This document shows positions 5,769-44,857 of a stretch of DNA of 44,857 nt, one piece after another (position 1 is the stretch's first letter; every line of letters begins with the position of its first letter). The position numbers and the translations under genes are program-made. Location: the IMG/VR virus record IMGVR_UViG_3300009012_000003, positions 1-44,857 of that record; one strand, given 5' to 3'. Under the pieces are notes generated by a model. The model ran no database searches. It was not told the DNA's origin and worked only from the letters and a program-made list of their open reading frames with translations. The DNA is from a virus.

Positions 5769-5828
5769 TCGCTGCCTCCGCCATTGGGAGTGTTGTTTAT
5801 AGCCCCACACGCCGGCCACGCCGCGCTG

Positions 5829-19206: not shown

Positions 19207-20935
19207 CATCACGTCGGCGCCGCCCAGTGCCCGCACGCTGTGGCCCACGCGCTGGGCACCGGACGTGCTGGAGCTGGACCTGCTGCGTGCAGTCTGCCGC
19301 AGTCACTTCTGGCCCTTCTTCATGCATGCGTGGGGCACGATGCACGGTCCCCATGCGCGCGACTGGTGGATCGACCGCGCCGAGATCGCAGAACCGCTCG
19401 CTGCGTGGTTTGAGACGCAGATCCACGAATGGCAGCAGGCGCGCGCCGCGCACAAGAAAACCCAGCGCCACCTGATGGTGATCGTGGCACGCGAGTTCGG
19501 CAAGACCACACTGATCACGCAGGCGGGTCTGCTGTGGCTGCACCTGCAAGACCCCGACTTGAGCTGCTTCATCGGCAGCGAAAAGGTCGAACTGGCGGCG
19601 GGCATGCTGAGTGCCATCCGCGCCGTCCTGACCGGCACCGACAAGCACGCCCAGTGGACACGCCTCTATGGTGACTGGATCGCGAGCGACGGCATTGCGC
19701 GCAAGACCGCAATCGTGCACACACATCGTTCGACCACGACGCGCAAGGAACCCAGCTTTGGCGTGTGGGGCGTCGAGACGGGCCTGACCGGCAGCCATCC
19801 CGACGTGCTGTGCCTGGACGACCCCAACACCTACGAGCGCGCCGCCGCGGACGTGGGCTGGTACGAGCGCGTGGTGCAGCATTGCGCCTCGCTGACCCCC
19901 GTGGTGCGCGCCGATGGGCTCGTGATCTACGTGGGCACGCCCTACAGCGATGCCGACCACCTGCACAAGACGCTCAAGCGTGACGGCATCGCAACGCTGA
20001 CCGGCATGCCGATGGTTGACTTCCGCCCGCGCGCTGACGGCCGCTGGCACGTGTTTCACCTGCCCGGCCGTGACGCCCGCGGCGCACCCACCGTCCCCAA
20101 CGTGTGGAGCGAGCAACGCATGCAGGAGTTCGAGCACGAGAACACCGACAAGTACAGCGCTCAGATCCTGTTGCGCCCCGACGTGAGCGAGCACAACCCG
20201 CTGACGCTGGAGCAGATCCGCGATTGCCTGGTGGACGTGAAGGACGTGCCGCATGGGATGCTGCGCTACACCGCCCACGTGGACACGGCATTCGTGCAGC
20301 CGGGACGGCTCATGTCAGGCGACGAAACGGTAATCGAGATCTGGGGCCACCTGCGCGATGGCAGCGGTGACGTGATCTACATCGAGGGCTACGGCAGCAA
20401 CCTGTGGCGCGGGGAGGACTTCTACCGCACCGTGGTCAGGCTGCTGGAGCGCTACGAACGGCTCGGGCGCAAGCTCACAGCGATCACCGACGAAGCGATC
20501 CCCGGGCGCCCCGACGAGGTTGCGCGCAGCTACCGCTCGTTCGTCAACGGTAGCAGCTTGAAGCGCACCTGTCCGCAGATCATCGAACTACACCGCGGCG
20601 GCAAAAAGAAGCTGCAGCAGCGCATCATCCCCGCCGCGGCGTTCTGGGCTGACGGCCACGTGAAGCTCACGCGCGACGCCCCTGGCTTGGATCGCCTGAT
20701 GGAGCAGATGTCGCGCATCGGCCGCACCGCCAATGACGACTGGGCTGACGCCGCCGCCGACGTGTTCAACCCCGCGGTGTACCAGCCGCAGCGCAAACTC
20801 GCCCAGCCCGAGACGCCACCGTGGCTCGCATCGCCCCAGGACGTGATACTCAAGGGCACCGCCAACGCCGATGAGCTGCGCGCGCTCTACGACAGCTGGG
20901 TCAAACGCGACGAGGTGAACTTTGAGCCAGTCTGA
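19166..20935 (+). CDS. terL: Terminase large subunit
   Basis: Walker A VAREFGKTT, Walker B DVLCLDDP, VGTPYS coupling motif. C-terminal nuclease-like Asp residues (HVDTAF, DDWADAAAD). Start is uncertain (ATG 19166 or GTG 19265). Confidence 0.85.
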   Translation: MRKSGVVASASAASITSAPPSARTLWPTRWAPDVLELDLLRAVCRSHFWPFFMHAWGTMHGPHARDWWIDRAEIAEPLAAWFETQIHEWQQARAAHKKTQRHLMVIVAREFGKTTLITQAGLLWLHLQDPDLSCFIGSEKVELAAGMLSAIRAVLTGTDKHAQWTRLYGDWIASDGIARKTAIVHTHRSTTTRKEPSFGVWGVETGLTGSHPDVLCLDDPNTYERAAADVGWYERVVQHCASLTPVVRADGLVIYVGTPYSDADHLHKTLKRDGIATLTGMPMVDFRPRADGRWHVFHLPGRDARGAPTVPNVWSEQRMQEFEHENTDKYSAQILLRPDVSEHNPLTLEQIRDCLVDVKDVPHGMLRYTAHVDTAFVQPGRLMSGDETVIEIWGHLRDGSGDVIYIEGYGSNLWRGEDFYRTVVRLLERYERLGRKLTAITDEAIPGRPDEVARSYRSFVNGSSLKRTCPQIIELHRGGKKKLQQRIIPAAAFWADGHVKLTRDAPGLDRLMEQMSRIGRTANDDWADAAADVFNPAVYQPQRKLAQPETPPWLASPQDVILKGTANADELRALYDSWVKRDEVNFEPV

Positions 20936-21257
20936 GCCCGCGGTGCACTGGGATGGCTTTAATGAGCGGTTTGCGCAGGACGCGTACGCGACGCAAATCG
21001 CGGGCGCCATGCAGCAGATCAATCAGCAGCTAGAGCAGTGCGTGTGGGACATCGGATCGCAGCTAGCGCAGCCGCAGCCGCAACCGCCCACGATCTGGGA
21101 CGAACTGTACCCGCGCGCCGGCAGCACAATCACGTTCGTGGACAACGCGCAGTCCACCTTACGCATGCCCATCACGTCCACTCAGATCTACCAGCGCGAC
21201 CTGGGCGTGCTGGAGCTGCTGGACCCGCACGCGGCTGCGCCGCTACCCCGCCCATGA
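20922..21257 (+). CDS. Hypothetical protein (111 aa)
   Basis: TTG 20922 with GAGG 4 nt upstream. Confidence 0.45.
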   Translation: MSQSEPAVHWDGFNERFAQDAYATQIAGAMQQINQQLEQCVWDIGSQLAQPQPQPPTIWDELYPRAGSTITFVDNAQSTLRMPITSTQIYQRDLGVLELLDPHAAAPLPRP

Positions 21258-21496
21258 ACCTGTTCGCGAAGCAGCGCCTAACAACCACCGGCAGCGTGAA
21301 CGTGCCGCTCGTGTGGACGAGCACGAGCGTAACCGGCTTCGCAAGTGCGTTCGCAACTGCGTCTGGGATGAGCACCACCAGTTCTGCGCAGCCCCGCCAG
21401 CTCACGCCCACCGAGCGCGCTCAAGCCGTGCTGTGGCGCACGGTCTACCACGAGCCCACGCCCATAGTCGATGCCGACGAGGACGACGACACATGA
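21254..21496 (+). CDS. Hypothetical protein (80 aa), acidic tail
   Basis: ATGA overlap with the upstream gene. Confidence 0.5.
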   Translation: MNLFAKQRLTTTGSVNVPLVWTSTSVTGFASAFATASGMSTTSSAQPRQLTPTERAQAVLWRTVYHEPTPIVDADEDDDT

Positions 21497-21744
21497 CGCT
21501 AGACCCACCCTACCTGTCGCGCGATCAGCTGGCGGCGCTGACGCAGCGCCACGAACACATGCTCGCGAGCGCCCACGCCAGTGCCACGTTTGGGCGCCTG
21601 CGCTGTGTGCGCTGCGGGCGCGAAGCCGCCCGCATGTGGCTCGTGCGCCACGCGCAACGCATCGGCATGCTGCGCGTGGTGCGCGAGTTCGCGCTGTGCT
21701 GGAACTGCGCCCGCCATTACGCGACGGCAGGGCGGCGCACATGA
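21493..21744 (+). CDS. Small zinc-ribbon protein (83 aa)
   Basis: ATGA overlap. CVRCG...CWNC pairs. Confidence 0.55.
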   Translation: MTLDPPYLSRDQLAALTQRHEHMLASAHASATFGRLRCVRCGREAARMWLVRHAQRIGMLRVVREFALCWNCARHYATAGRRT

Positions 21745-22298
21745 GTCGCGCAGCGTACCTGGTCAGCAACACGGCACCGATCGACCTAGCTGCCGTGCGC
21801 ACCGCCATGCCGCCCCCGGAGGTGCTGGCGTGGTGCGACGGTGACGGCGCCGGCGACTACCAGCCGTTATGGGCACTGACGTGCGCCCTCGCTCCGCGCA
21901 CGATCGTCGAGTTGGGCACGCGTGACGCCCGCAGCACGCGCGTGGTCGCCCACGCCGCACCGCAAGCGGCGTTGACGACCATCGACATCGCAGATTGCAG
22001 CGCCGTCGTCCCCGCGGGCGCCACCTTCGTCCACGCTGACGCCGCCAGCGCGTTTGGCGCTTGGCGCGACCCGATCGACCTGCTGTTCGTGGACACCGAC
22101 CCCCACAGCGCGCTCCAGACCACGGGCTGGCTCAACACGTGGGTCGCGCGGTTCGCTCGCGCCGCCGCATGGCACGACAGCCTGACGACGCCGGTGGGCG
22201 CAGCGCTGGTCACGTGGCTCGCGCACCACCCTGAGTGGTCCGGCGCCGAACTAGGCACAAACCACGGCATGTATCTGATGTGGCGGCACACGCCATGA
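21741..22298 (+). CDS. Class I SAM-dependent methyltransferase (Methyltransf_24/CmcI-like)
   Basis: Motif I IVELGTRDARST, LTTIDI, motif IV DLLFVDTDPH, terminal WHD. ATGA overlaps at both ends. Confidence 0.65.
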   Translation: MSRAAYLVSNTAPIDLAAVRTAMPPPEVLAWCDGDGAGDYQPLWALTCALAPRTIVELGTRDARSTRVVAHAAPQAALTTIDIADCSAVVPAGATFVHADAASAFGAWRDPIDLLFVDTDPHSALQTTGWLNTWVARFARAAAWHDSLTTPVGAALVTWLAHHPEWSGAELGTNHGMYLMWRHTP

Positions 22299-24280
22299 GC
22301 GCAACGTTCTCGCAAACCGCCAACGCCACACGCGCAACGCTGGACGCCAATTCGCTCGTGGGGCTCGTGCGCGAGCGCAAAGCCCACAGCGAGCGCACGT
22401 TCCTCGCATACTACAACAAGTTGGCGAGGTGGTACGACCGCTACCGTGGCATCTACAGCGGCAAGTTCGCAGCGTTCCGCAACAACATTCACATACCATT
22501 CATATATAGCGTGATCCAGTCGGACGTGGCGCGCAAGATCCAGATGTCGCTCGGCAACTGGCCCTTGATCAGCTTCGAGGGCTATCCGCCGGAGCAGGAG
22601 CCCACCGCCCGCAAGAACGAGATCCTGGTCAGCGTGCAGTGGGAAGACTTGCACATGTACTTGAAAGCCGTGGACTTCCTGACCACGCTCGACCTGTACG
22701 GCGTTGCGATCATGCGCTGGGGCTGGAAGCGCGACTTGCGCCAGCAGCGCGTGCGCGAGCCGCTGCCGGTAGCGCCCGGCTTGACGTTCGAGCGCACGGT
22801 CCAGCGCTGGCAGACCTACTTTGACGGTCCCGACGGGTACGTGGTCGATCCACTCGACTTCTTCCCGCAGCCGGGCTTCCGCCACCCCGACGACATGGCG
22901 TGGGCGGTTGAGCGCTACTGGCGTGATCTGGACGACATGCGCGCGCAAGTGCGTGCCGAGCAAGCCGCCGGTACGCCACGCGAAGAGCTGAGCTTCGATC
23001 CGCGCGCACTCGAAGACCTGGCGCTAACCGGGAGCGAGAGCGATGCCGGCAGTCGCCTGATCGAGCGCATCAGCGTCTACCGCAACGCCACCGACTTCCA
23101 GATCCGCAAGGGCGAGAAGTACGCGAAGCCGGTCGAGGTGTGGGACCACTGGGGCACAGTGCCGGACGAGCTGCTGCCGGCGGACGGTGAGCGCATGCGC
23201 CGGCTCGTGGTACTGAACGGGCGCGTACTCGCAAAGAACGTGGGCAACCCCTACTGGCACGGGCAAAAGCCGTGGACGACCTGTGCCATCGGCGATCCGC
23301 ACTACTTTCACGGCGTCGGCAAAAGCGAGCTTTTGGAGAAACTGCAGGCCGCGAGCAACCGCCTGCTCAACCACAAGCTCGACTCGCTGGACTTGTCGAT
23401 CTCGCCCGTGTTCCTCGCGAACAGTTCAATCGTCCAGGCGCAGAACCTGGTCACGCAGCCGGGGCGCATCATCTCGATCGACGGACCCGTGGGCGAGGAC
23501 GTGATCCGGCCGCTGCTGATTGATCGAACGGGCATCCAGCAGGTCGGCCCCGAGGTCGAGCTGCTGTGGCGCTACATGCAGCAGGGCAGCGGGATCGTGG
23601 AGGACACGGTGCAGGGCGGCGCCAGCTCGCGTCAGACGGCGCACGAGTTCCAAGGTCGCCAAGAAGCCGTTATGACGCGCCTGATGAGCGAGTCGCGCCA
23701 GCTCGAAGAGGGCTGGCTTGAGCCCAGTGCCAACCTGTGCCGTGCCTTGAACCGCCAATTCTTGACGGTGCCGAAGCAGATCAACATGCTTGGTTCGCTC
23801 GCGCGAACCAATCCGATCACCGGTGCGCCGCTGCCGCCCGACACGCTCGCAATCGACCATCATGACCTGTGGCCCGACTACCGGGCGCGCGCCGTGGGCG
23901 CCAACCAGACCATGATGCGCGCCGCGACGCAGCAGAACGTGATCCAGCTGCTGCAAGCCGCATCGGCCAACCCTGCGCTCATGCAACTCATCAACTGGAC
24001 AAACTTTGCGCGCCAGCTCTTGGAAACGTTTGGCTTCCGCAACATCAACGAGATGCTGAACGAGACAGCGCAACAGCAGCAGCTGACGGACGCAACGCAG
24101 GGCGCCGCACGCGCCGGTGTGCCAATCCAGCAGCAGATGCAAGCGTTGTGGCCACAGCAGGGCTTCGCGGGCGGCGGCAACGGCGCCTCCGGCAGCCCTG
24201 AGACGCTCGACCCCGCACACATGATGGCGATGATGGCAGCGAGCGGCGCGCGCCAGCCCATGCTGCCGCTGACGCGGTAG
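22295..24280 (+). CDS. Portal (head-tail connector) protein
   Basis: 661 aa. Lies downstream of terL and upstream of scaffold/capsid. The N-terminal YYNKLARWYDRYRGIY region is typical of podovirus connectors. ATGA start overlap. Confidence 0.75.
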   Translation: MSATFSQTANATRATLDANSLVGLVRERKAHSERTFLAYYNKLARWYDRYRGIYSGKFAAFRNNIHIPFIYSVIQSDVARKIQMSLGNWPLISFEGYPPEQEPTARKNEILVSVQWEDLHMYLKAVDFLTTLDLYGVAIMRWGWKRDLRQQRVREPLPVAPGLTFERTVQRWQTYFDGPDGYVVDPLDFFPQPGFRHPDDMAWAVERYWRDLDDMRAQVRAEQAAGTPREELSFDPRALEDLALTGSESDAGSRLIERISVYRNATDFQIRKGEKYAKPVEVWDHWGTVPDELLPADGERMRRLVVLNGRVLAKNVGNPYWHGQKPWTTCAIGDPHYFHGVGKSELLEKLQAASNRLLNHKLDSLDLSISPVFLANSSIVQAQNLVTQPGRIISIDGPVGEDVIRPLLIDRTGIQQVGPEVELLWRYMQQGSGIVEDTVQGGASSRQTAHEFQGRQEAVMTRLMSESRQLEEGWLEPSANLCRALNRQFLTVPKQINMLGSLARTNPITGAPLPPDTLAIDHHDLWPDYRARAVGANQTMMRAATQQNVIQLLQAASANPALMQLINWTNFARQLLETFGFRNINEMLNETAQQQQLTDATQGAARAGVPIQQQMQALWPQQGFAGGGNGASGSPETLDPAHMMAMMAASGARQPMLPLTR

Positions 24281-24322
24281 CAGTCGTAAACGACTGCAGT
24301 AAATCACAGTTAGGAGACGCTC

Positions 24323-24691
24323 ATGCCCGAGCAGCCGCTACCCCCGCCGAGCGAGCAGATCGAAAGCCTGCGCGGCACGATCCTGTCGCGCGGCTGGACC
24401 GAGATCATGCTGCCGCAGCTCTCGCAGCGCATGGACCAAGCCAAGGAAGCGCTCGTGCTGCCGCCCGAGCTGCGCACCGGCGAGTGGAAGGACCTCTCGA
24501 ACGAGCGCTTGGCCGGCATGGTCCAGGGCCTGGGCTGGGCGCGCAACGTGTGGCTGATCGCGATCCAGCGCCACGATGCGGCGCGCGCGCTGCTGGCGCA
24601 ACAGCGCGCCAGCGACCTGGATGGTGAGCGCGGTATCGGTCACCCCCACGCCCCTGACGTGGACCCGGAGCAAGCGCGCATCCTCAGCTAG
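24323..24691 (+). CDS. Hypothetical protein (122 aa)
   Basis: TAGGAGA lies upstream of ATG 24323. Confidence 0.55.
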   Translation: MPEQPLPPPSEQIESLRGTILSRGWTEIMLPQLSQRMDQAKEALVLPPELRTGEWKDLSNERLAGMVQGLGWARNVWLIAIQRHDAARALLAQQRASDLDGERGIGHPHAPDVDPEQARILS

Positions 24692-24923
24692 CGCACCACG
24701 TTGCGGCGCCGCCCTGCGGGGCGTGACAAGCGGGTAACTGCCCTAGGTAACCGAGGGGAGCGCCGCAAGCGGCGTGTCACCAGCGCCGCGCGCGCTGCCC
24801 AATTCCCCGATTGACAGCACCCCCCGCCGCAGTGGTGGTCTTCACGCCACGAGCTAGCCTGCGTCGCAGAACGCGACGCACCTAAGAACTAGGTCACCGG
24901 CTGGCGCACACATGGAGGCCACA

Positions 24924-25685
24924 ATGGCAGTCGATCCCATGGCACCGGTGCAGAACGCGCCTGCGCCGCAGCCGCCGCAGAACGCGCCCGCTGCGCCACC
25001 CGACCCCTACCTATCGCGCGTGGGCTATGGCAACTACGAAGACTGGGTCAAGGCCACGATCAGCAGTGCCAACGAGAGCACGCGCCTGGCGCAGCGCGTC
25101 CGCGAGCTGGAGGGCCAGCAGCAGCAGCTCGCCCAAACGCTTACCGGCCGCAGCGGTGACCCCGCGCAGGAGTTAGACCGGCTGGGCATCCCGCTCGACG
25201 CGCTCGACGCCTACCTGGATCGTAAGGTCCAAGCTGGCGTGAGCGCCCGCCTGGACCCGATGCTCAAAACCTCAACTGCCATCAATCGCGTCAAGCAAAC
25301 CTACCCTGACTTCGCCACGCACGAGCCGCGCTTCAATGCGTGGCTCGCGACCAATCCTGACCTGAATGCACGCCTTCAAGATGCGCTCACGCGCGACCCC
25401 GACGGCGCTGAGCTAGCAATCCGCGGCGCCTTCGCACTGTGGGAGCAGCAAGCCCGCGCCCAGGCGCCCGCGCCGGAGCCGCCGCGCGTGCCGACCGACG
25501 CGCGCCTGCCCGCAACGCAGGGCAACGCCGCTGCCGCGCGCGGCACGACCGTGCCGCAGCCCACGCCCGAAGAGATCGGTCGGCTGCTCGTACGCGCCCG
25601 CGCCGGCGACGATCGCGCCAAGATCGCGCTCGTCAAGATGCGGCTCGGCAACCAGCCGCATCCCGAGATCCCCGCGAACCCGTGA
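24924..25685 (+). CDS. Scaffolding protein (candidate)
   Basis: Helical, Gln/Ala/Pro-rich 253 aa between portal and capsid. GGAGG lies 5 nt upstream of ATG 24924, which is preferred over 24912. Confidence 0.6.
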   Translation: MAVDPMAPVQNAPAPQPPQNAPAAPPDPYLSRVGYGNYEDWVKATISSANESTRLAQRVRELEGQQQQLAQTLTGRSGDPAQELDRLGIPLDALDAYLDRKVQAGVSARLDPMLKTSTAINRVKQTYPDFATHEPRFNAWLATNPDLNARLQDALTRDPDGAELAIRGAFALWEQQARAQAPAPEPPRVPTDARLPATQGNAAAARGTTVPQPTPEEIGRLLVRARAGDDRAKIALVKMRLGNQPHPEIPANP

Positions 25686-25726
25686 GCGCGAGCGCACCCT
25701 GAAGGCGTGCCGTGGAGACATAAACC

Positions 25727-26719
25727 GTGGCTAACGACACCAACCTCTGGTCAGTCTACGACCTGGGTGGCCCGTTCGCGGGCGGCACCAGCGTGCTCAA
25801 GGAAGATCTCGCTGACGTAGTCATCAATATCGATCCCACCGACACGCCCGGCTGGAGCACGTTCGCCAAGACCGTGGCCAAGAACACCGCCCACGAGTGG
25901 GTCGCAGCCGCCCTGGCCGCAACCTCGACCGCGGGCACCGCAGAGGGTTTCGACTTCACATCCGCGAACCGCACTGCGCGCGTGCGGCTCCAGAACTTGA
26001 CGCAGATCTTCAACGTGCCGGTGATCGTGTCGGACACCGCACGCGCCGTTGACCCTGCCGGCGTGTCCGATGAGTACATGCTGCAGATCATGTACGGCAT
26101 GCAGGAAGAGTCGCGCAACATCGAAGCCGCGCTGTTCAAGGCCGCAACCGCGTCGGCAACGGGCGATGACGCAAGCGCCGCACGCGTCTTGAAGGGCTTC
26201 CGCGGCTTCGTTGGCATGACCGGCACCCCGGCATTCAACATCCAGCAGATCAACGAAGCTGGCAACGCGTCGTTCCTGATCTCAACCGCTAACATCATTA
26301 ACCTGCACGAGACGATGTACACACTGGGTGCCAAGCCCGACTCGCTGTGGTGCAGCCCCGGCGTCAAGGCCGACTTGACGCGTGCATTGGTCGCTGCGGG
26401 CGGCAACTTCCGTCTCAACATCGCAGCCGCCGACAACACGATGATCAACAATATCGAGGTGTTCCACAGCGACTTCGGCGTGCTGCCCATCATCACCGAC
26501 CGGTTCATTCCGCAGGCCACTGGCTTGTCGGCATCGAGCGCCAGTGCTGCCTGGTTCCTGATCGAGCGCAGCAAGGCGCGGCTCGCAGTGCTGCGTCCGA
26601 TGCACCACGTGCCGATGGGAAAGAGTGGCGACCACACGCGCGGCCTGGTCGTGACCGAGCTGACGCTAGAGCTGCAGCATCCCTACGCAGTCGGTGTCGG
26701 TACCGGAGTTGGTACGTAG
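25727..26719 (+). CDS. Major capsid protein
   Basis: 330 aa directly after the scaffold. GGAGA SD before GTG 25727. Composition and size fit HK97-fold capsid proteins. Followed by strong hairpins. Confidence 0.75.
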   Translation: MANDTNLWSVYDLGGPFAGGTSVLKEDLADVVINIDPTDTPGWSTFAKTVAKNTAHEWVAAALAATSTAGTAEGFDFTSANRTARVRLQNLTQIFNVPVIVSDTARAVDPAGVSDEYMLQIMYGMQEESRNIEAALFKAATASATGDDASAARVLKGFRGFVGMTGTPAFNIQQINEAGNASFLISTANIINLHETMYTLGAKPDSLWCSPGVKADLTRALVAAGGNFRLNIAAADNTMINNIEVFHSDFGVLPIITDRFIPQATGLSASSASAAWFLIERSKARLAVLRPMHHVPMGKSGDHTRGLVVTELTLELQHPYAVGVGTGVGT

Positions 26720-26729
26720 CAGAAGGTGG

Positions 26730-26788
26730 CTGCCCGGTCGAGGGACGGGCAGTTGCTGGCGCGAGCAGGACGGTGCGAGCCGTCCTGC
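26730..26788 (+). terminator. Two tandem perfect hairpins just downstream of the capsid gene
   Basis: CTGCCCG/CGGGCAG (26730-26752) followed by TTGCTGG, then GCAGGACGG/CCGTCCTGC (26765-26788). Confidence 0.4.
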
Positions 26789-26866
26789 CGCGTCACCGCC
26801 CTGACGGGCGTGGCCACAATCACTGCATGTCAAGCCTTTTACAAGCTGCTAGCAAGGGAGACACCA

Positions 26867-27190
26867 ATGGCATACACGAGTCACGGCAAGCCGCGCCGCC
26901 CTGACCGGAGCAAGGTCCAGCCCCCGGCGAACGTACTGGACGCGAACAACCGCTACGACATCAACGCTCAGCTTGAAGCGCTGGCGCGCGTGACGCGCTC
27001 GTGGGGCATGGACCCTGACGCGGGCCTCGCGATCACCGCTGAGGGCAAGTTGACGATCGGCGGTCCCGACGAGTCGCAGGGCGTTACGTACGATCCCAGT
27101 CCGCAGCTCGACCCGCCGACGATCCCCCAGGCGCGCCCGCCCAAGACGGGCGCCGCGGCTGCGCCCGGCGCCGGTACGAAAGGTTTCTAA
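26867..27190 (+). CDS. Hypothetical virion-module protein (107 aa)
   Basis: GGGAG SD before ATG 26867. Confidence 0.55.
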   Translation: MAYTSHGKPRRPDRSKVQPPANVLDANNRYDINAQLEALARVTRSWGMDPDAGLAITAEGKLTIGGPDESQGVTYDPSPQLDPPTIPQARPPKTGAAAAPGAGTKGF

Positions 27191-27194
27191 CGCC

Positions 27195-27593
27195 ATGGAG
27201 CGCAAGTCCCTCGCCCCCGACGTACCCGCAACCAAGTCTTGGCCCGACACGCCTCCAGCCGCCGAGTTCTACGTCAGCAACCCCGACCGCAGCGCACTCG
27301 ACACCGTCACCGACGCCCGCTGGATCACCGACCGCTTTCCCAGCATGGCAACCCAGTTCGCTGCCATTAGATCGTTGCGCGACCACTACTGGGATCTGCG
27401 TAAGATTACCTCGCACGGTTCGATTGTGGGCGGCGCAGGTGGCATGAAGCACGTCGCGTCGATCCCGCAGCGCATCCTGTTCGCAGCCGAACGCGCCGCC
27501 AAGCTCGATGGCGTTGACTTCTGGGACGAGCGTGTGTTCTACGCCTGGCTTGGGCGCAACCCGCAATACGCCTTAAAGGACGCCGACAAGTGA
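27195..27593 (+). CDS. Hypothetical virion-module protein (132 aa)
   Basis: ORF track. Tight spacing to neighbouring genes. Confidence 0.55.
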   Translation: MERKSLAPDVPATKSWPDTPPAAEFYVSNPDRSALDTVTDARWITDRFPSMATQFAAIRSLRDHYWDLRKITSHGSIVGGAGGMKHVASIPQRILFAAERAAKLDGVDFWDERVFYAWLGRNPQYALKDADK

Positions 27594-28939
27594 CACAGCC
27601 CCTGCGCATCTACACCATGATCAACACGCTGACCTACAACGCCAGTACCTACTATCGCCTGGACGTGCCACTCACGACCATGGAAGAGCTGGGCTTGCCG
27701 GTCGAGCCAATCGTAGACAATGGCGATCCCACGATCCCAAACCGCAACCGCATCCTCGCAGTCTGCCAAAGCGACATCAACCTGCTCTACCAACCCGTCT
27801 CGCCCTCGCTGCGCGAACAGATCCTGCGCCTGGACAGCCTGTTCCCCGCCAAGACTGCCACCGGTGACTGGCACTACCCACCCTCATTCATCTGCGACAC
27901 CGACGACAACCTGTTCCAGGTGCACCCCATGAATCCCGCCTACCGCACCCTGGGCATCCGCATGCCCGACGGGCGCCTGCTGCGCGAAGGCGACGAGGTG
28001 GGTGTCGTAGACCAAACCGGTGCACGCCGCGTACTGTGGAAAGACGGCGTTGACGGTTTCAACATCGCTGACAACTTGCTCAAGCTGCAGAGCTATCGCG
28101 ACATTCTGGCGACAGCAGCCGGTGTCACGTGCAGCACCCCGCGCGTCGAGAACTACGTCCGCACCGAATCCGGCAACGATCGCACATTCATATCTCCCAA
28201 CATGGTCCGGTTCGATCACTACGAGCCGGTAGATCTGCGCCCGCACCCAGACGAGGTGCGCATCCTGTGGCAAGGCTCGACCACACACTTTGAAGACTTC
28301 TACGACATCCGCCAGTCGCTGCCGCTGATTGTGCGGCGCTATCCGCACGTGAAGTTCATGTTCTGGGGCGCACTCCACCCCTGGATCATCCAGAACATGC
28401 CCAGTGACCGCTTTCGATACATCCCGTGGTGCAACTACGCCGAGTACAAGCTGCGCCTCGCGACAATCGGCCACGACATCGCAATCGCCCCGTTGCGCCC
28501 GCACCGCTTCAACGTCTGCCGCAGCGCCATCAAGTTCTACGAAGCCGCAGTCCTGACGCCGCCGGTGGCGTTCCTGGGTCAGGGCGGTGGCACGCCCTAC
28601 AGCGACGAAGTGCTCGATGGCGAGACGGGCGCGATCTGGGACACGCCGCAGCAGTTCGTCGAGCAGCTATCGCGCCTAATCGAAGACGCCCCCGAGCGCA
28701 AGCGTCTCGCCGCCAACTCGCGTGATTGGCTCAGCGAGCACCGCGACGCCATGAAGCTCGCCCCTCGCCTATACGAGTTCTACCGCGAGGTGCGCACGCG
28801 TAAGCAGCGCGACACGCCGCTGCCCACACCCGAAGCCTGGGCCACGCGCAAGCAGGAGCTGCTGGCGGCGGTCGCCGCGCAATTGGCCAACACGCCTGTG
28901 CCGAACGGCGAGCCCGCGGATGCCGCTGTTCACGCCTAG
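27590..28939 (+). CDS. GT-B fold glycosyltransferase (GT1/GT4-like C-terminal domain)
   Basis: SAIKFYEAAVLTPPVAF...DEVLDGETGAIWDTPQQFVEQLSRLIEDAPERKRLAANSRDWL matches the nucleotide-sugar-binding half of GT4-type enzymes. GTGA start overlap. Confidence 0.6.
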   Translation: MTQPLRIYTMINTLTYNASTYYRLDVPLTTMEELGLPVEPIVDNGDPTIPNRNRILAVCQSDINLLYQPVSPSLREQILRLDSLFPAKTATGDWHYPPSFICDTDDNLFQVHPMNPAYRTLGIRMPDGRLLREGDEVGVVDQTGARRVLWKDGVDGFNIADNLLKLQSYRDILATAAGVTCSTPRVENYVRTESGNDRTFISPNMVRFDHYEPVDLRPHPDEVRILWQGSTTHFEDFYDIRQSLPLIVRRYPHVKFMFWGALHPWIIQNMPSDRFRYIPWCNYAEYKLRLATIGHDIAIAPLRPHRFNVCRSAIKFYEAAVLTPPVAFLGQGGGTPYSDEVLDGETGAIWDTPQQFVEQLSRLIEDAPERKRLAANSRDWLSEHRDAMKLAPRLYEFYREVRTRKQRDTPLPTPEAWATRKQELLAAVAAQLANTPVPNGEPADAAVHA

Positions 28940-29843
28940 CACCCTGGTCGTGACGGCGGCGCAGTCGGTGGTCGCTGAGTCCGCGGGCGCCCAAGCCGAC
29001 ACGGACATGCTGACGCGGGCGCTGCGTGCACTCGACGCGACGGCCCAGCGCTGGAACCGCTTAAAGTGGAAGTTCCTGCAGCAGGAGCAGATGCTGGTGC
29101 TGGTGGCGCCCTTCACCGTGACGGGCGTTTCGACCACCGCAGGCGGAACCACGATCACCACCAGCGTCGCCGCCGGCTTCGCGAGTGTGCTGGCGCAAGA
29201 CATGGTGCTCGACGGCAGCACCGTATTCCACGGCGACACGCAAGTCGCAGCCACGGGCTCGACTGCACTTACGCTCAACGTGGGCGCCCGGACGACCGTG
29301 ACGGGCGCCACGGCAATATTCCAGCGCGCAGTTTACAGCCTCGCAAGCGACTTCAAAGCCGTCTACGACGTGCGCCTCGCCGACAACCCGCGCCCGCTGT
29401 TCTACCTGCAGCGCCGCATCTACGACCGGCTCATCAGCGACCAGCAGTCCGCTGCCGCGACCGTAGCCTACGAACTCTACAGCCAGGGCGCCGCGGGACA
29501 GATCCGCTTCATCGCCCCGCCCGCAGCCGCCGACGTGGCCCACATCCGCTACATGCGCCGCATTAGCATGCCGTCCAGCGCCACCGCCGCAGTGCTAGAC
29601 GTGCCCCAGGACTACGAAGACGTATTCCTCGCCGCCGCCAAAGCCTACTTCCTGGCCGACAAGAAGGAAGACCTACCACGCGTCCAGTACTGGGCCGAGT
29701 ACGCCCGCGCTGGCATGGCGCAGATCCGCAGCGACGAGCACTGGGTACCCGACGAGCTGCTGGCACTCGAAGCCCCCTGGCAGGGCGTCTACAACTACAC
29801 CAACCCCAACGCAAGTCCCCCTTGGTGGGACTCATTCTGGTAG
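28920..29843 (+). CDS. Virion structural protein (adaptor / tail-tubular-A-like by position)
   Basis: 307 aa immediately upstream of the nozzle-like gene. No motif-level assignment. Confidence 0.45.
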   Translation: MPLFTPSTLVVTAAQSVVAESAGAQADTDMLTRALRALDATAQRWNRLKWKFLQQEQMLVLVAPFTVTGVSTTAGGTTITTSVAAGFASVLAQDMVLDGSTVFHGDTQVAATGSTALTLNVGARTTVTGATAIFQRAVYSLASDFKAVYDVRLADNPRPLFYLQRRIYDRLISDQQSAAATVAYELYSQGAAGQIRFIAPPAAADVAHIRYMRRISMPSSATAAVLDVPQDYEDVFLAAAKAYFLADKKEDLPRVQYWAEYARAGMAQIRSDEHWVPDELLALEAPWQGVYNYTNPNASPPWWDSFW

Positions 29844-29885
29844 AATGAGTTACACGGTGCGGTTAATGTATTGCGCGAGGTGCGC

Positions 29886-32519
29886 GTGAGCCGCCTGATC
29901 GAAACCGTCCAAGGCGGCCTGATCACCGCGCGCGACCCAGCGCAGCTCGCGCCCGGCGAGCTGCAGTTCCTGCAGAACGCAGTCTACGACCCCGGCAGCC
30001 AGGCGCTCAGGCGCGCCACCGGCCGCACCCAGTTCGGCGCCGCCAACGCCAACGCGTCGGCCATCAACGGCCTGCGCGACCCCGTGTTCCTGAACGGCGA
30101 TCACCTACTGCTCGCGCTGTGGGGTAGCGCCCTCTCGACCGCAACGTTGGGCGACACCGGGACGTTCGCTCTCGCAACCACGCTATCGACCAGCGCTGCG
30201 ACAGCGCTCGACGCCGTCCAAGCCAACGACGAGTGGTACCTATTCACGGGCGTGGACCGGCTTGCGATGTACGTGTCCGCCACCGCCGCGGGTACGCCGG
30301 TGAGCTTCCGCCCCCACGGCTTGGTCCCCGTGAGCGGCAGCATCAGTGCCAGCGCCACCGCCGGCACCTTCAGCGCCAGTGCCACCGGCTACTTCGAATA
30401 CTGGACGACCGAGGTGTTCGACTACACGCGCGACGGAGCTGCTGCGCAACTTGAAAGTACCTACACCGGCGCCACGACGAACTTTTTCGTGGCGACGACC
30501 GCAAGCGCCGTCCGCGTGGTGCGCCCACCCACCGCCAACGCCAACGCCACGCGCTGGCGCCTCTACCGCAACAGCGCCCCCAACACTTCCGTCGCCGACC
30601 GCAACTTCCCCACCGGCTTTTTCGTGTCGGAAGCTCCCATGAGTGCCACCGCCATGATCGACGGCGTGGGTCAGGGCGGTGGATACTTTTTCGGTAACGC
30701 CACCGCCACCGGCTTCGGCGGTGTCCCGGCGCCGCTCTTCCCCTACAGCAGCGCCACCGCATTCGAAGCGAGCTGGATCACCGCTGAGCGTGTGACCGCT
30801 CAGGACGCCACGAACGCTAGCGCCACCGCCACAATCCGCGATCACGTGACCCTGGGCGGTGGCGTGCTGCTGCCCACCGGTCTACCGCCGTTCGCGCGAT
30901 TCTTCGTCAACGGCACCAACGTGACAGGTCTCACAGACCCAATCACCGGTGTCGAGGTCGCAGTCGGCGGCAGCGTCAACGCCACTGGCACGAGCCTGGG
31001 CGTGCGCTTCCACCGCCTGGTCGCAGGCTCGATCTACAGCAGCGTTCAAAAGACCGTCCCGCTCGTGAGCGGCGCAAACGTTGACTACATCGTGGGTGGC
31101 AACGGTGACGTGTGGGGCGCCGGTACCGCCAGCGCCTACGGCCCCAACCTCTTGTCGTCCGACTTTGCCAGTGCCAACTTCGCGCTCTCGGTTCTGTTCA
31201 CGAGCGAGAACATGCAAGCTGCCGCGACGGCGCTCGTAGACTATGTCAAGCTCAAGATCTATGGCGGCGGTACCGCGGGCACTACGATCGCCACCGACAC
31301 GCCGTTCCCGGCCCTGAACATCGACATCGCGGGCACCACGCTGGGCCACGTCGGCTCGCACGGCCAGCCGCCGATCGCCACCACCGCGGACTTCTTCCAG
31401 GGCTCGCTCGTGACGAACGACATCGCCACGCCTAACCTGACGCGCCACTCGCTACCGCTCGCGTACGACTACTTCCCCAGCATCTACTTCATCGACTACA
31501 ACATGGGCCACGGCGAGCGCGTGACCAACATCAAGCGCCTCAATAACAGGCTGGCGGTCATGACCACGCAGCGCCTGTTCCGCGTCAACTACCTGCCGAC
31601 CGAGGCCGACAGCAACTTCCAGTCGGGCGGCGGGCCGGCGTTCGAAGAAGTCAACCCCGACGTTGGCTGCGTAAACGCCATGTGCGCCTGCACTTACACG
31701 GGTGCCGCACGCCGCACCGAGCTGGCCTTCGTGTCCAACATCGGCATCCACACTACTGACCTGTTCACCGTGAACCTGCTCACGAACGACCTGGACTGGC
31801 GCCTGATCATGGCCACCGCCGCCACCGCCAACGCGCGCCCGATCGCCCTCGTGAACGACCAGGAGCAGCGCGAGCTGCTGTTCTACTACCGTAACGACAG
31901 CTTGGGCCAGGAGCGCTACAAGTGCTTGCACCTGTTCTACGATCAGACACACGTGACACGCGAAGGCGGTCTCAAGCTGGGCGGTCAGGTCAACATGCGC
32001 AACTACGCAAGCGGCGCCGGCGTCAGTGCCGACCTGTACAGCGCCTGGTCGGTGACGCGCGCCGCCGGCAACGTAAACGTGTACCTGGGCTACGGGGGCG
32101 CCGGTTTGGTCGCAACTGCCGCAGGTGCAGGTTTCGTCTACCGCGAAACCGGTAACGTGCTGCCGGCATTCGACCCGACCATGCAGTACACGCTGCGCCG
32201 GATGTACCTCGCTGGCGCAGGTGGTGAGTTCCAAATGGGCGAAGTCTACACCTACAACGTACTCAGCGACACGACCAGCACCCAGGACTGGAACTGCACG
32301 CCCTCCACGACCAAGACCAACTTCGCGGGCGCCATCGCTCAAACCACCAAGAACCACGTTTGGGGTGGCGAGGTGCAGTGGAAGCACCAGTTCAACCTGC
32401 TGGCCGAGTCGGTCGATCTGGCGTTCGCGCAAGGCACCGCCAGCGCCAACAACTCGTGGAGCGTGCAGCACCACATCATCGACGGTCAGAACTTTGGCGA
32501 GGAAGACAGTGGCCGCTGA
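29886..32519 (+). CDS. Large tail/nozzle protein (tail-tubular-B-like)
   Basis: About 877 aa. The N-terminal LIETVQGGLITARDPAQL...LQNAVYDPGSQALRRATG pattern recalls the T7 gp12 start (ISQSIKNLKGGISQQP...). GAGG lies 5 nt before GTG 29886. TTG 29871 is also possible. Confidence 0.55.
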   Translation: MSRLIETVQGGLITARDPAQLAPGELQFLQNAVYDPGSQALRRATGRTQFGAANANASAINGLRDPVFLNGDHLLLALWGSALSTATLGDTGTFALATTLSTSAATALDAVQANDEWYLFTGVDRLAMYVSATAAGTPVSFRPHGLVPVSGSISASATAGTFSASATGYFEYWTTEVFDYTRDGAAAQLESTYTGATTNFFVATTASAVRVVRPPTANANATRWRLYRNSAPNTSVADRNFPTGFFVSEAPMSATAMIDGVGQGGGYFFGNATATGFGGVPAPLFPYSSATAFEASWITAERVTAQDATNASATATIRDHVTLGGGVLLPTGLPPFARFFVNGTNVTGLTDPITGVEVAVGGSVNATGTSLGVRFHRLVAGSIYSSVQKTVPLVSGANVDYIVGGNGDVWGAGTASAYGPNLLSSDFASANFALSVLFTSENMQAAATALVDYVKLKIYGGGTAGTTIATDTPFPALNIDIAGTTLGHVGSHGQPPIATTADFFQGSLVTNDIATPNLTRHSLPLAYDYFPSIYFIDYNMGHGERVTNIKRLNNRLAVMTTQRLFRVNYLPTEADSNFQSGGGPAFEEVNPDVGCVNAMCACTYTGAARRTELAFVSNIGIHTTDLFTVNLLTNDLDWRLIMATAATANARPIALVNDQEQRELLFYYRNDSLGQERYKCLHLFYDQTHVTREGGLKLGGQVNMRNYASGAGVSADLYSAWSVTRAAGNVNVYLGYGGAGLVATAAGAGFVYRETGNVLPAFDPTMQYTLRRMYLAGAGGEFQMGEVYTYNVLSDTTSTQDWNCTPSTTKTNFAGAIAQTTKNHVWGGEVQWKHQFNLLAESVDLAFAQGTASANNSWSVQHHIIDGQNFGEEDSGR

Positions 32520-32730
32520 CGCGCACACGCTGCGCACATACGAACCGGGGCCGCGAGCGGGGGACACCGCCATGCTACCCGACGACCTGAGTGACGCAGA
32601 CGCACTCGATTTCGTGGGCGCCCACGCGCGCGAGCTAGAGCGCCTGGACGAGCTGCTGGCGCAGCTGCTGCGCGCCCAGCAGCAGCTCAGCGCCATGACT
32701 GCCAGCGCCAGCGCGAGCGCCCAGTCATGA
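32509..32730 (+). CDS. Small coiled-coil protein
   Basis: GTG 32509 with GAGGA 5 nt upstream (alternative ATG 32572). The stop overlaps the next ATG (ATGA). Confidence 0.45.
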   Translation: MAADAHTLRTYEPGPRAGDTAMLPDDLSDADALDFVGAHARELERLDELLAQLLRAQQQLSAMTASASASAQS

Positions 32731-34067
32731 GCCGCGACTACAAGGGCGTGATCTTCCATCGCATCGAAGACACGCCCACGCGCGAAGCTATCGCCGTGAT
32801 TGACGACTTCCTGCGCCAGATCGGCGCCACCGTCAACCGCGTGGCGCAGAACCTGCAGCCCGACGCCAGCGGTAGCGTGATTGTGGTGCCGTTTGACCAA
32901 AGCGTGCTCGCGAATTACGTGTACATGCCGGGGCGCACCGCCGACCAGATCGTCAATGCGCTCGGCCCTGGCAATGTGGCACTCACGATCAACTCCGCGC
33001 CGGGCGCCACCGCAGACATCCTACGCGTCCAGAACAGTGGTACCAACTTCATGAAGATGGACCACTTTGGCGTGACCACGTTCACGAGCAACTCCAGCTC
33101 CGACAACGTCAAGGTGATCGGGACGCTGCGCGTCGGACTGGACGGCACGAGCGGCATTTGCGCCATCTCGGGTGGCGCCGCTGACCTGTTCATCGACTGC
33201 ACCAACACCAGCGCCGTAACGCGCACGCAGTTCTTGGGCACCGCCAACTATGCGTGGCAATTCCAGGGGACGGCGCGCGTGGGACCGCGCGGTGGTGACA
33301 GCATCAACAACATCATGCTCACACTGGCGCAGGACGCCGGCCACACTGGCGACATGCTACGCATACTGGACGGCAGCAGCAACGTGCTCGCGCGCATCAC
33401 CAGCGCCGGTTACTACGAAACGCAGCGCCTGCTGCTCGATGGCAGCACGAGCGGCACCATCACGGTGAAGCCGCCCGCCGCGCCGACCACCCACACCCTG
33501 ACACTCCCCGGCGCCCCCGTTGCCGGCAACTTCCTTCAGACGGATGGCTCGGGTGTCACGTCGTGGACCGCCGCCCCGACCAGCATCAGCGTAGACAAGA
33601 ACGGCACGCTCGTGGGCACGCGCGGCACGCTCAACCTGATCGAAGGCACGAACGTCACGCTCACGATGGCCGACAACGCCGGTGCCGGGCGCGTGGACGT
33701 GACGATCGCCAGTAGCGGCGGGGGCGGCAGCGGCACCAACGTGCAGCACCGCTGGGAAGCCAACGGTCCGTTCAAGATCGACACGAGCGTAGACGGCACC
33801 TACGTGGCGCCACACGCGGTCACGATTACCCAGACGCGTCTGCACCGGCGCGCCGCGGGCTCCAGCGGCACCACCACGGTTGTGCTCAAGCAGAACGGTG
33901 TTACACAGGATACGCGCAACGTGACTGCCGCCGCCGGCACGGACGCCATTGACACCTCGGGGGCGCTCAGCGTTAGCGTCGCAGCCGGAGACCGGCTGAC
34001 CGTGGACGCAACCGCCGTGGAAGCCGGCGTACCGCTGGATTACGACTTCATCATCGAGGCAGCCTGA
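32727..34067 (+). CDS. Tail fibre / spike-like protein
   Basis: 446 aa, Gly/Thr/Ser/Asn-rich and beta-type composition. Located in the tail module. Confidence 0.5.
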   Translation: MSRDYKGVIFHRIEDTPTREAIAVIDDFLRQIGATVNRVAQNLQPDASGSVIVVPFDQSVLANYVYMPGRTADQIVNALGPGNVALTINSAPGATADILRVQNSGTNFMKMDHFGVTTFTSNSSSDNVKVIGTLRVGLDGTSGICAISGGAADLFIDCTNTSAVTRTQFLGTANYAWQFQGTARVGPRGGDSINNIMLTLAQDAGHTGDMLRILDGSSNVLARITSAGYYETQRLLLDGSTSGTITVKPPAAPTTHTLTLPGAPVAGNFLQTDGSGVTSWTAAPTSISVDKNGTLVGTRGTLNLIEGTNVTLTMADNAGAGRVDVTIASSGGGGSGTNVQHRWEANGPFKIDTSVDGTYVAPHAVTITQTRLHRRAAGSSGTTTVVLKQNGVTQDTRNVTAAAGTDAIDTSGALSVSVAAGDRLTVDATAVEAGVPLDYDFIIEAA

Positions 34068-35443: not shown

Positions 35444-36055
35444 ATGATCCTAGAGGGCAGAGTTGGTCCCGCGACGCTGCAGGACGGTGTGCTGCGCGAG
35501 ATCCGCATTGGCCGGAGTGGTGAGCAGGTCGTAGCCGATGCGCACGGCCGCTATCACGAAGCCGTGGTCAGGGGCAACGTCTTCATCGCCGCCAACAGCG
35601 CCACGCAGGCGTTGTCGGTCAACAGTACGACGGCGACCGGGCTCATCCTCTACAACCCCGCGGGCTCGGGCCGCAACGTTGCGCTGCTGGACGCGAGCGT
35701 CCAGATCGCATCGCTCCCCGCCGCCGCCTATCAGCTCGTGTGGACGGGCGGCGTGCAGACCGCGGCGCCCACTGGGCTGACGGCACTCACGGTACGCAAC
35801 GGCTTCATAGGCGGTGCAGCGACTGGCGTGGGGCTGGCCTACTCGGCCGCCACCATCGCCACCGCCAACATTTTGCGCGTCATCCCCGGCGGCGGTGCGG
35901 CGACGATGGCGACATCGACGGCCTACACGCCCTTCATCCGCGACGAAATCTCGGGGTTGCTCATCCTCGCACCGGGCCAGCTCATCTCGCTCCAGGCGCT
36001 CACCACCGCCGTCACCGTGCTCGCGTCGATCACCTGGGAAGAGGTCCCGGTCTAA
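35444..36055 (+). CDS. Hypothetical tail-module protein (203 aa)
   Basis: GGGGG SD before ATG 35444. Confidence 0.5.
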   Translation: MILEGRVGPATLQDGVLREIRIGRSGEQVVADAHGRYHEAVVRGNVFIAANSATQALSVNSTTATGLILYNPAGSGRNVALLDASVQIASLPAAAYQLVWTGGVQTAAPTGLTALTVRNGFIGGAATGVGLAYSAATIATANILRVIPGGGAATMATSTAYTPFIRDEISGLLILAPGQLISLQALTTAVTVLASITWEEVPV

Positions 36056-36912
36056 TGCCGCTCATCCGCGATCTGCCCTCCGAGAGCAACACCTACACCG
36101 GGAGCAACATCTTCCTGGGCGGTCAGACGCAGCTCAACACTACCCAGATCAATGGCCAAGCGCAGTTTGGTAATAGCATTGACGATGAGCCCATACCACA
36201 ATTCCAGACTCGCTTTAGCACCGGTACTGGTGGCAACGACTTCCTCAAGATCGCTGACGCCTCCAGCGTCGGCAGCGGTCATGTAATGACGCTCGGCTTA
36301 GCCGGACTCATGCCCGGCGACATCCGCCTATCGCTGCCAACTGACGCCACCGGAGCGCTGATGTCGAATACCAACACGGCCGCCATGACCAACAAGACCC
36401 TTGGCGCGCCCGGCGGTATCCGCTGCTCCACCTCCACTGGCACCGGCGTCAAGTTCCAGAACGTCAACAGCATCACTCAGTTCGCGATGCTCGACCTCTC
36501 GACGCTGACGGCGCAGCGCAACTGGAAGGGCCAGGACGACGCAGCGACAATGCCGCTCGTGGTGGCGCCCACGAGTGCCACCACCGACAAGACTGCGCAG
36601 ACCGCAAGCATCGGCGCTACCACCGTCTACACAACCACGCACACCGGCATGTACCGCATGTCGGGCTACGCGGTATTCACAGCTGTCACCACTCCTGGCA
36701 ACCTAACGCTAACCGCCAAGTACACCGACCCGCAGCAGGCGCAAACGATCAACTTCAACCGCAACAACGTGGTCGCCTATACCGCCGCGGGCTCCGAGGA
36801 AGATGGCGAGATCACCTTTTACGCGACGAGCGGCAGCGTGATCCAGTTCTCGACGACGCTAACGGGCGTTGGCACCTACAACGTCTACATCCGCGTGGAG
36901 GGGCTGTCATGA
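36055..36912 (+). CDS. Tail fibre-like protein (285 aa)
   Basis: ATG 36055 overlaps the upstream TAA (TAATG). Thr/Gly/Asn-rich. Confidence 0.5.
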   Translation: MPLIRDLPSESNTYTGSNIFLGGQTQLNTTQINGQAQFGNSIDDEPIPQFQTRFSTGTGGNDFLKIADASSVGSGHVMTLGLAGLMPGDIRLSLPTDATGALMSNTNTAAMTNKTLGAPGGIRCSTSTGTGVKFQNVNSITQFAMLDLSTLTAQRNWKGQDDAATMPLVVAPTSATTDKTAQTASIGATTVYTTTHTGMYRMSGYAVFTAVTTPGNLTLTAKYTDPQQAQTINFNRNNVVAYTAAGSEEDGEITFYATSGSVIQFSTTLTGVGTYNVYIRVEGLS

Positions 36913-44816: not shown

Positions 44817-44857
44817 GGCGTCACCTCCGTCATGCTATCCTTGTTCCAGTTCGGACC
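44735..44857. repeat. Terminal direct duplication, right copy (identical to 1..123)
   Basis: Read directly, 123/123 identical. Confidence 0.95.

Follow-up and report, generated by a model that had tools for sequence, protein, structure and literature searches.

A conserved glycosyltransferase gene between the capsid and adaptor genes of uncultivated podoviruses: a candidate for virion glycosylation

The particles of phages are commonly taken to lack glycans, and to our knowledge exceptions have been established only among some actinobacteriophages. What role, then, might a glycosyltransferase have when its gene lies between the capsid and tail genes of a podovirus-like phage? We examined this question for the IMG/VR virus record IMGVR_UViG_3300009012_000003, analysed here over its whole length of 44,857 bp (the window), in which an open reading frame (ORF) of 449 amino acids is found in the structural operon two genes downstream of the major capsid protein (MCP). 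The original prediction, made from the letters alone, read this ORF as a GT-B glycosyltransferase (GT) and proposed that it may glycosylate the virion. What is new here is that the GT is a core gene of the structural module and not a stray accessory gene, and virion glycosylation is, tentatively, the most economical reading of its role.

Reading frame, fold and candidate active site

27590–28939, plus strand: GT-B fold glycosyltransferase, 449 amino acids (from the translation, PHROG, AlphaFold2 and Foldseek)

The GT gene is read without internal stops from a GTG start codon, and its GC content at the three codon positions (0.64/0.44/0.83) shows the same pattern as in the confirmed genes of the genome. 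The GTG at 27590 is supported as the start because aligned homologues begin at the equivalent residue. The sequence at the start is AAGTGACACAG, in which the GTG (27590–27592) overlaps the TGA of the upstream gene (27591–27593) as GTGA, while the TAG stop (28937–28939) falls 20 nt inside the next gene, which starts with ATG at 28920. A scan of positions 24000–33000 found no promoter-like or terminator-like sites. The raw sequence confirms the GTGA coupling that had been predicted, and the GT is translationally chained into the head-tail morphogenesis operon.

The protein matches the PHROG 7162 family "glycosyltransferase" (E 7e-21). The window GT itself gave no Pfam match at E ≤ 0.01, while its homologues match PF13524 (Glyco_trans_1_2; 42 of 55) and PF00534 (39 of 55) with best E values of about 1e-7 to 4e-8; an NCBIfam match was far under its threshold (21.5 against 400 bits). 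An AlphaFold2 model built with the homologue alignment (pLDDT 93.7, pTM 0.90) is composed of two α/β domains, an N-domain (residues ~1–215) and a C-domain (~216–405), followed by a helical C-terminal extension with an acidic tail, of which the last seven residues are disordered. Foldseek comparison of the model with the PDB returned GT-B glycosyltransferases exclusively, over the full length, among the top 50 matches. The best of these are GT4-type enzymes (sucrose-phosphate synthase, ManT, PimA, BshA, MshA and PglA; E 4e-13 to 1e-11), followed at E ~1e-10 by TarM, which acts on wall teichoic acid, and SdgB, a protein O-GlcNAc transferase. Against viral models the named matches were all glycosyltransferases or sugar-related methyltransferase fusions, with no structural proteins among them. 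The model and the PHROG match thus bear out the GT-B assignment of the original prediction, and the motifs it quoted, KFYEAAVL...PVAF and DGETGAIWD, are present in the translation. In a separate comparison the family profile aligned only to the last 80 residues of the GT4 enzymes in the PDB, leaving their catalytic motifs not alignable by sequence, and single-sequence PDB searches returned noise.

The N-terminal half had been described as lacking recognizable features, which did not hold: it is modelled as the N-domain of a GT-B enzyme with its own beta-hairpin insertion at residues ~122–158. Residues invariant among the 55 homologues include A18, S19, Y22 and R23 (the YYR motif), D105 and D106 within TDDN, and N162 in the N-domain, and G229, H233 and D236 (WQGxxxHxED) together with F307, R311, S312, K315 and E318 (FNxCRSAIKFYE) in the C-domain. 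By sequence register, E318 corresponds to the second Glu in EX7E of the GT4 enzymes. The canonical GT4 motifs are otherwise not conserved, with the first Glu of EX7E replaced by C310 and the GRxxxxKG loop by GSTTHFED, which contributes H233, E235 and D236. The protein is a member of the GT-B superfamily as judged from its modelled fold, which is GT4-like, yet it fails the canonical GT4 motif test and we do not class it as GT4. A shorter subfamily that is only 24–30% identical retains YYR, TDDN, GGxxHxxD and [R/K]SxxKxxE, and because the same residues persist at this distance we infer that the candidate active site is functional.

The calculated isoelectric point (pI) is 5.9 for the whole GT and 4.9 for the N-domain, which carries a net charge of −8, and no hydrophobic segment was found in the protein (maximum 19-residue hydropathy 1.03). 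Membrane-surface GT-B enzymes such as PimA, MurG and WaaG use basic or amphipathic patches on the N-domain. An acidic N-domain is unlike what would be expected of a DNA-binding or a membrane-surface GT-B enzyme, although this argues only weakly.

The acidic tail, modelled at low confidence (28805–28936, residues ~406–449), ends in a short motif, which is AAVHA in the window protein and PVPA(LNESG) in that of many relatives. The PVPA motif, sought as a shared targeting peptide by analogy with encapsulin cargo, was not found on any other ORF. The C-terminal motif of the GT may be a docking peptide.

Inheritance with the particle genes

To place the gene among its relatives, 67 related IMG/VR loci were collected through a capsid alignment, and terminase, portal, capsid, GT, adaptor and nozzle genes were located in them with profile hidden Markov models (HMMs). 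In 50 of the loci the available sequence extends for more than 1.7 kb past the capsid gene, and 49 of these 50 have the GT. The single exception (L076) has a capsid only 24% identical, and the other 14 loci lacking the GT have less than 1.7 kb after the capsid gene. Gene order is invariant: terminase, a gap of 0.2–5.4 kb, portal, scaffold, capsid, a gap of 0.3–3 kb, GT, adaptor and nozzle, with the GT abutting or overlapping the adaptor gene at every GT-bearing related locus. The original prediction had considered such an arrangement unusual for a podovirus-like layout; within this lineage it is instead the rule, and a second, aquatic lineage described below probably has the same GT-adaptor pairing.

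The divergence of the GT follows that of its neighbors. Across 35 non-redundant loci, pairwise identities of the GT correlate with those of the portal, capsid and adaptor with Pearson coefficients of 0.96, 0.94 and 0.94, and its mean pairwise identity (0.51) is close to that of the MCP (0.52) and the portal (0.54), with the adaptor (0.39) and the nozzle (0.42) lower. Universal retention together with divergence that tracks the portal and capsid at an equal rate indicates, at the level of sequence, that the GT belongs to the core of the particle module and is inherited vertically, and that it is not a recent accessory acquisition. Such inheritance alongside particle genes is what would be expected if the substrate of the GT were a phage protein.

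The family to which the GT belongs is large, since a HMMER scan of 1.84 billion cluster representatives (50% identity) recovered 619 proteins at E ≤ 1e-30. Among 5.8 billion proteins searched, at least 140 are homologues over the full length, with 36–72% identity, all of them metagenomic and many on contigs of 40–45 kb. By comparison, scanning 185,579 bacterial and archaeal species, with one genome each, gave a single match to the GT family, and the family appears from these searches to be phage-exclusive. That one match (L077, CAZIRH010000166.1) lies in a metagenome-assembled genome (MAG) binned as Solibacteraceae, on a contig of 9.7 kb that represents a piece of a phage genome, with capsid, GT, adaptor and nozzle genes; the contig is either mis-binned or a hint of an acidobacterial host. 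Cultured phages whose capsids are more distantly related (Venkman, phiM5 and L007) do not have the GT.

Neighboring genes and linked sugar-tailoring genes

The structural arm of the window around the GT contains the following features.

19166–20935: terminase large subunit
20936–22234, plus strand: terminase-portal island, a variable cargo slot, here with a 111-amino-acid ORF, a Cys-rich HNH-like ORF (21313–21744) and a probable class I methyltransferase (21741–22298, 185 amino acids)
22235–24280, plus strand: portal of SU10 type (PF23899, E 6e-13)
25727–26719, plus strand: MCP of SU10 type (PF17236, E 1.2e-58; PHROG 1328), a candidate acceptor
26864–27190, plus strand: small Pro/Ala-rich protein of 108 amino acids, common only to the closest relatives
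27195–27593, plus strand: conserved 132-amino-acid protein directly 5' of the GT, its stop overlapping the GT start
28920–29843, plus strand: SU10-type head-to-tail adaptor, a positional orthologue of PF24175 (SU10_adaptor), overlapping the GT 3' end by 20 nt
29871–32519, plus strand: nozzle-sized tail protein of 882 amino acids, assigned by position, with no family match

A scaffold-sized protein is encoded between the portal and the MCP, and fibre genes follow the nozzle gene. The position given in the original prediction, two genes after the MCP and before the adaptor and nozzle, stands: the PF17236 capsid gene is followed by two small ORFs, the GT and the adaptor orthologue, with the nozzle recognized by position. 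The adaptor family PF24175 (SU10_adaptor) was matched by the orthologues in L002 and L003 and weakly in L004, and the window adaptor itself has no significant Pfam match. All relatives keep a gene for 850–1050 amino acids after the adaptor, in the nozzle position.

Immediately upstream of the GT, a homologue of the 132-amino-acid protein adjoins it in 53 of 57 loci; word-based searching found 3 homologues of this protein and profile searching 22. Its AlphaFold2 model was poor (pLDDT 64), and neither a family match nor a Foldseek fold match was obtained. The slot of the 108-amino-acid gene is occupied in other relatives by two families of small Gly/Ser/Thr/Pro-rich, repeat-containing proteins. 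The ORF listed from 26726 (26726–27190) has 46 initial codons that look out-of-frame, and its start is probably the ATG near 26864. Extra genes between the capsid and GT in relatives of the soil lineage encode homing endonucleases and PA14-domain proteins, and sugar enzymes were not found there.

Genes for sugar chemistry are found instead in the terminase-portal gap, a hypervariable island of 0.2–5.4 kb in the relatives. A Pfam scan of 70 island ORFs from 25 loci identified 13 proteins that match PF08421, PF13489 and PF08484, a set which we take to mark TcaB9/TylC3-type nucleotide-sugar C-methyltransferases, as well as 11 FkbM-family methyltransferases, a DegT-family aminotransferase, a GT2 enzyme and a GT4-like N-domain. 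The aminotransferase sits in the closest relative, whose GT is 72% identical, and scores best against PseC, WecE-type and ArnB sugar 4-aminotransferases. Relatives with notable islands are L011, L014–L016, L022, L026, L031, L035, L043, L044, L051, L063, L065 and L075.

For the window, the original prediction had pointed to an S-adenosylmethionine-dependent methyltransferase at 21741–22298 that could modify the sugar. A methyltransferase there is probable from a PF13578 match, which is below threshold (22.6 bits against a cut-off of 26.3); no homologue was found in any related locus, its PDB matches were at noise level, and the link to a sugar is conjecture.

A second lineage (L078–L085; aquatic, GC 41–50%, contigs of 40–44 kb) was reached through the shorter GT subfamily. 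Here an SU10-like capsid gene is followed by a glycan cluster of ~5.5 kb, in which a WbqC-like protein, a GT2 enzyme and a kinase-like (APH-like) protein occur in 6 of 6 loci, together with UDP-glucose dehydrogenase domains, PIG-L deacetylases, methyltransferases and hexapeptide acyltransferases. A homologue of the GT, 24–30% identical, comes after this cluster and is followed by a probable adaptor. The adaptor assignment is weak: one ORF per locus matches PF24175, hhalign gave E 0.036, and the tail tubular protein A of PDB 9k09 was matched at E 0.05; the ORF with the PF24175 match is most probably the 225-amino-acid gene right after the GT. Comparable glycan gene blocks follow the capsid gene in two Manatee Spring podovirus genomes, and in one of these the last gene of the block is a GT distantly homologous to the window family. 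A scan with the query P0260 gave zero matches.

The first and last 123 bases of the window (1–123 and 44735–44857) form an exact direct repeat, which indicates a complete phage genome of ~44.7 kb, circularly assembled or terminally redundant; its GC content is ~66%. Pfam and PHROG scans of its 64 ORFs found no integrase, and the window has no tRNA genes and hence no host clue from them. The endolysin of the phage is a GH108 enzyme with a PG_binding_3 domain, a type typical of phages that infect Gram-negative bacteria, and fragments have been binned with Solibacteraceae and Methylomirabilis MAGs. Endolysin type and MAG binning are only hints to the host.

Elsewhere in the genome, a gene pair on the minus strand of the replication arm (3407–4528 and 4647–5819) encodes a DUF2201 VWA-like/putative metallopeptidase and a MoxR-like AAA+ ATPase. 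The N-terminal part of the ORF at 35740–36912 is Arg/His-rich and reads out-of-frame; this fibre-like gene probably starts at an ATG near 36055, abutting the end of the ORF at 35444–36055.

Proposed virion glycosylation, its alternatives and known systems

The reading we lean toward, with slightly less than even confidence, is that the GT is a conserved priming transferase that glycosylates a virion protein in the cytoplasm. The GT would be a soluble cytoplasmic GT-B enzyme, predicted to be catalytically competent and produced alongside the head and tail proteins, and would move a sugar from a nucleotide-sugar donor to one of the structural proteins of the phage (capsid, adaptor, nozzle or fibre), either ahead of assembly or while it proceeds; the priming of the virion glycan would be its conserved task. 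The window phage would take the donor from the pool of its host. For many relatives, enzymes for the synthesis or decoration of unusual sugars (C-methylated, O-methylated or amino sugars), along with a second GT, would come from a swappable island, and the glycan would then differ between strains. One conserved transferase combined with variable tailoring enzymes is the pattern expected if the GT primes a co-evolving phage protein while the remainder of the glycan can change. Vertical inheritance in the structural module, taken with the linked tailoring genes, fits a virion glycan better than an accessory host-modifying gene, and the modelled fold neighbors, which include the protein-O-glycosylating SdgB, count for this reading. 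That the enzyme is active, that its acceptor is a virion protein, and which protein this might be are inferred from the gene and its context.

Among the possible acceptors, the central segment of the adaptor is rich in Thr, and Ser plus Thr make up 17–20% of the nozzle and fibres. Capsids of the GT-bearing soil lineage have Ser/Thr/Ala-rich loop insertions (alignment columns ~175–200 and 355–372) that are absent from the GT-lacking phiM5, Venkman and L007; capsids of the aquatic GT-bearing lineage are likewise without them. The proposal of virion glycosylation in the original prediction gains from the core position of the gene in the structural module and from the tailoring genes in the same arm of relatives, and it loses the capsid extension of mycobacteriophage type: no C-terminal extension was found on the window capsid, in which residues 21–328 of 330 align to positions 7–291 of the 292-position SU10_MCP profile, and the C-terminus is conserved within the capsid family. 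Several further points weigh against the proposal. With GRxxxxKG and the first Glu of EX7E missing, neither activity nor donor can be read from the sequence; genes for sugar biosynthesis are lacking in the window phage itself; members of the GT family are known from metagenomic sequence alone, and the position of a gene is no proof of its function. The field usually interprets such phage GTs as modifying the host O-chain or glucosylating DNA (PMC7029224), and DNA-glycosylating clusters also occur beside structural genes (10.1101/2023.12.21.572611).

The main rival, which we consider a real but distinctly less probable explanation, is modification of the host envelope, in which the late GT and the tailoring enzymes of the relatives would alter the lipid-linked precursor of the lipopolysaccharide (LPS) O-antigen, the capsule or an exopolysaccharide, masking receptors and blocking superinfection or the trapping of progeny on debris. 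The near structural relatives include the lipid- or polysaccharide-directed GT4 enzymes PimA, PglA, ManT and TarM, and the WbqC, GT2, hexapeptide acyltransferase, UDP-glucose dehydrogenase and PseC/WecE-like aminotransferase genes are typical of O-antigen loci; it is also the standard interpretation of GTs in aquatic phages (PMC7029224). Host-directed genes, however, are usually patchy and exchanged with hosts, whereas this GT is universal, co-diverges with portal and capsid, is not found in cellular genomes, and sits inside the head-tail operon and not in the variable island. Pfam and PHROG scans of the window found no Gtr-type membrane proteins, flippase or integrase, the lack of a membrane-binding segment and the acidic N-domain argue weakly in the same direction, and a lytic phage would have little time for surface remodelling by a late gene. 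If this explanation were nevertheless true, an unusual host-surface-modifying enzyme would have become fixed as a core gene of a structural operon.

We regard two other roles as improbable, the second marginally more so. The GT might glycosylate a modified base around the time of packaging and so protect the DNA from restriction. Phage GT-B enzymes that glycosylate 5-hydroxymethylcytosine resemble MshA, PglH and the T4 β-GT, and their clusters lie near structural genes, some with kinase-like sugar-activating enzymes (Pyle et al., 10.1101/2023.12.21.572611); variable sugar chemistry would also suit a restriction arms race. Yet Pfam and PHROG scans found no thymidylate-synthase-like hydroxymethylase, TET/JBP dioxygenase or C5-cytosine methyltransferase among the 64 ORFs of the complete genome, and likewise no hydroxymethylase, oxygenase or C5-methyltransferase in the 70 island ORFs or in 67 ORFs of the second-lineage clusters; the T4 β-GT is not within the top 50 PDB matches, and both the GT and its N-domain are acidic. 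Alternatively, the GT-B fold might have been co-opted as a structural, chaperone or ejected component of the virion, recruited to the portal vertex by its tail. Conservation equal to that of the portal and capsid, the constant position before the adaptor, the docking-peptide-like motif (PVPA(LNESG)/VHA) at the end of the disordered acidic tail and the virion-detected carbohydrate esterase in the equivalent slot of phiM5 would all suit such a role. Against it, the invariant residues are of the kind that a GT-B nucleotide-sugar site would be expected to have, and they persist at 24–30% identity, no structural-protein fold was matched in the PDB or among viral models, the linked sugar-tailoring genes would be senseless without catalysis, and the esterase of phiM5 shares no homology with the GT. 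Conserved catalytic-type residues and linked sugar genes make a role in structure alone unlikely. What probability remains beyond virion glycosylation and these three explanations is left for other acceptors.

Returning to virion glycosylation, a bolder version, which we put forward as a possibility held with more doubt than the basic proposal, is that SU10-like podoviruses form a large uncultivated clade, spanning the high-GC soil and mid-GC aquatic lineages, in which it is an ancestral part of morphogenesis and an obligatory one. A phage-exclusive priming GT, locked to the adaptor gene and perhaps docking through its C-terminal peptide, would add the first sugar, and the islands would diversify the coat as the phage counterpart of O-antigen variation. 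Should virion glycosylation prove correct, a whole podovirus clade would have a glycosyltransferase in its particle-building toolkit, conserved as well as capsid and portal, with exchangeable islands supplying strain-variable sugar chemistry. This would change the view of the virion surface, including how particles adsorb, how stable they are in soil and how hosts, grazers or antibodies recognize them, and the GT-adaptor gene pair would serve as a sequence marker for finding such phages.

Known systems resemble the locus in part. According to Freeman et al. 2023, as relayed in PMC12619734 and PMC11256854, GTs encoded by mycobacteriophages (Che8, Rita and other members of cluster F1) decorate virion proteins. 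The likeness lies in phage-encoded GTs that are proposed or shown, in these accounts, to act on virion proteins in the host cytoplasm and to give the particle a glycan coat. As described there, those GT genes are located toward the 3' end of the genome and do not form part of the structural operon, and the glycans are carried on C-terminal extensions of capsid and tail-tube subunits, whereas the GT described here is a core gene inside the head-tail operon and the window capsid has no such extension. Those phages are temperate actinobacterial siphoviruses, while the window phage is a podovirus with a GH108 endolysin in which glycosylation is proposed from the genes.

The nearest full-length homologues in cultured phages are Streptomyces phage Zuko gp5 and Arthrobacter phage Atuin gp165 (23–27% identity over 97% of the P0246 subfamily query). 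In Zuko (L103, 1319–3384), gp5 forms a pair with a UDP-glucose dehydrogenase, just ahead of the genes for the terminase and the structural proteins. These phages are actinobacterial siphoviruses and large myoviruses, and their GT does not lie between capsid and adaptor. In phi92 gp163 and its relatives in Phapecoctavirus (phi92-like coliphages), only the C-domain is shared with the GT family. In phiM5 (a Sinorhizobium phage, L006), the slot between the capsid and tail tubular protein A is occupied by a different carbohydrate-active enzyme: a 436-amino-acid SGNH/GDSL hydrolase (7728–9038) annotated as detected in the virion proteome. Homology between this hydrolase and the occupant of the GT slot was considered and rejected (hhalign probability 0.1%).

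With the retaining GT4-type enzymes (PimA, MshA, BshA, PglA, sucrose-phosphate synthase and SdgB; Foldseek E 4e-13 to 1e-9) the GT shares two Rossmann-like domains with a cleft between them and a C-domain helix with a conserved Glu (E318), but identity is 10–14%, and the window family has its own YYR and TDDN motifs, beta-hairpin insertion and acidic tail. The seroconverting Gtr module of temperate phages, in which a GtrA flippase, a GtrB bactoprenol GT and a GT-C membrane protein lie by an integrase and attP, has no counterpart in the window, in which neither an integrase nor Gtr families were found. The DNA sugar-hypermodification clusters (Pyle et al., 10.1101/2023.12.21.572611) and the T4 α- and β-glucosyltransferases offer phage GT-B enzymes, sometimes near structural genes and with sugar-activating or tailoring enzymes, but those clusters are defined by an adjacent C5-methyltransferase and 5mYOX, or by a thymidylate-synthase homologue, none of which was found in the window genome or in the clusters of its relatives.

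Giant viruses use their own GTs and nucleotide-sugar tailoring enzymes to build virus-specific glycans independently of host machinery, as on the capsid of chlorovirus PBCV-1 and the fibrils of Mimivirus. Although these are eukaryotic viruses with large gene sets and another structural context, and homology to the window GT is limited to the fold, their combination of a GT with aminotransferases and methyltransferases is the closest functional analogy for the gene set described here.

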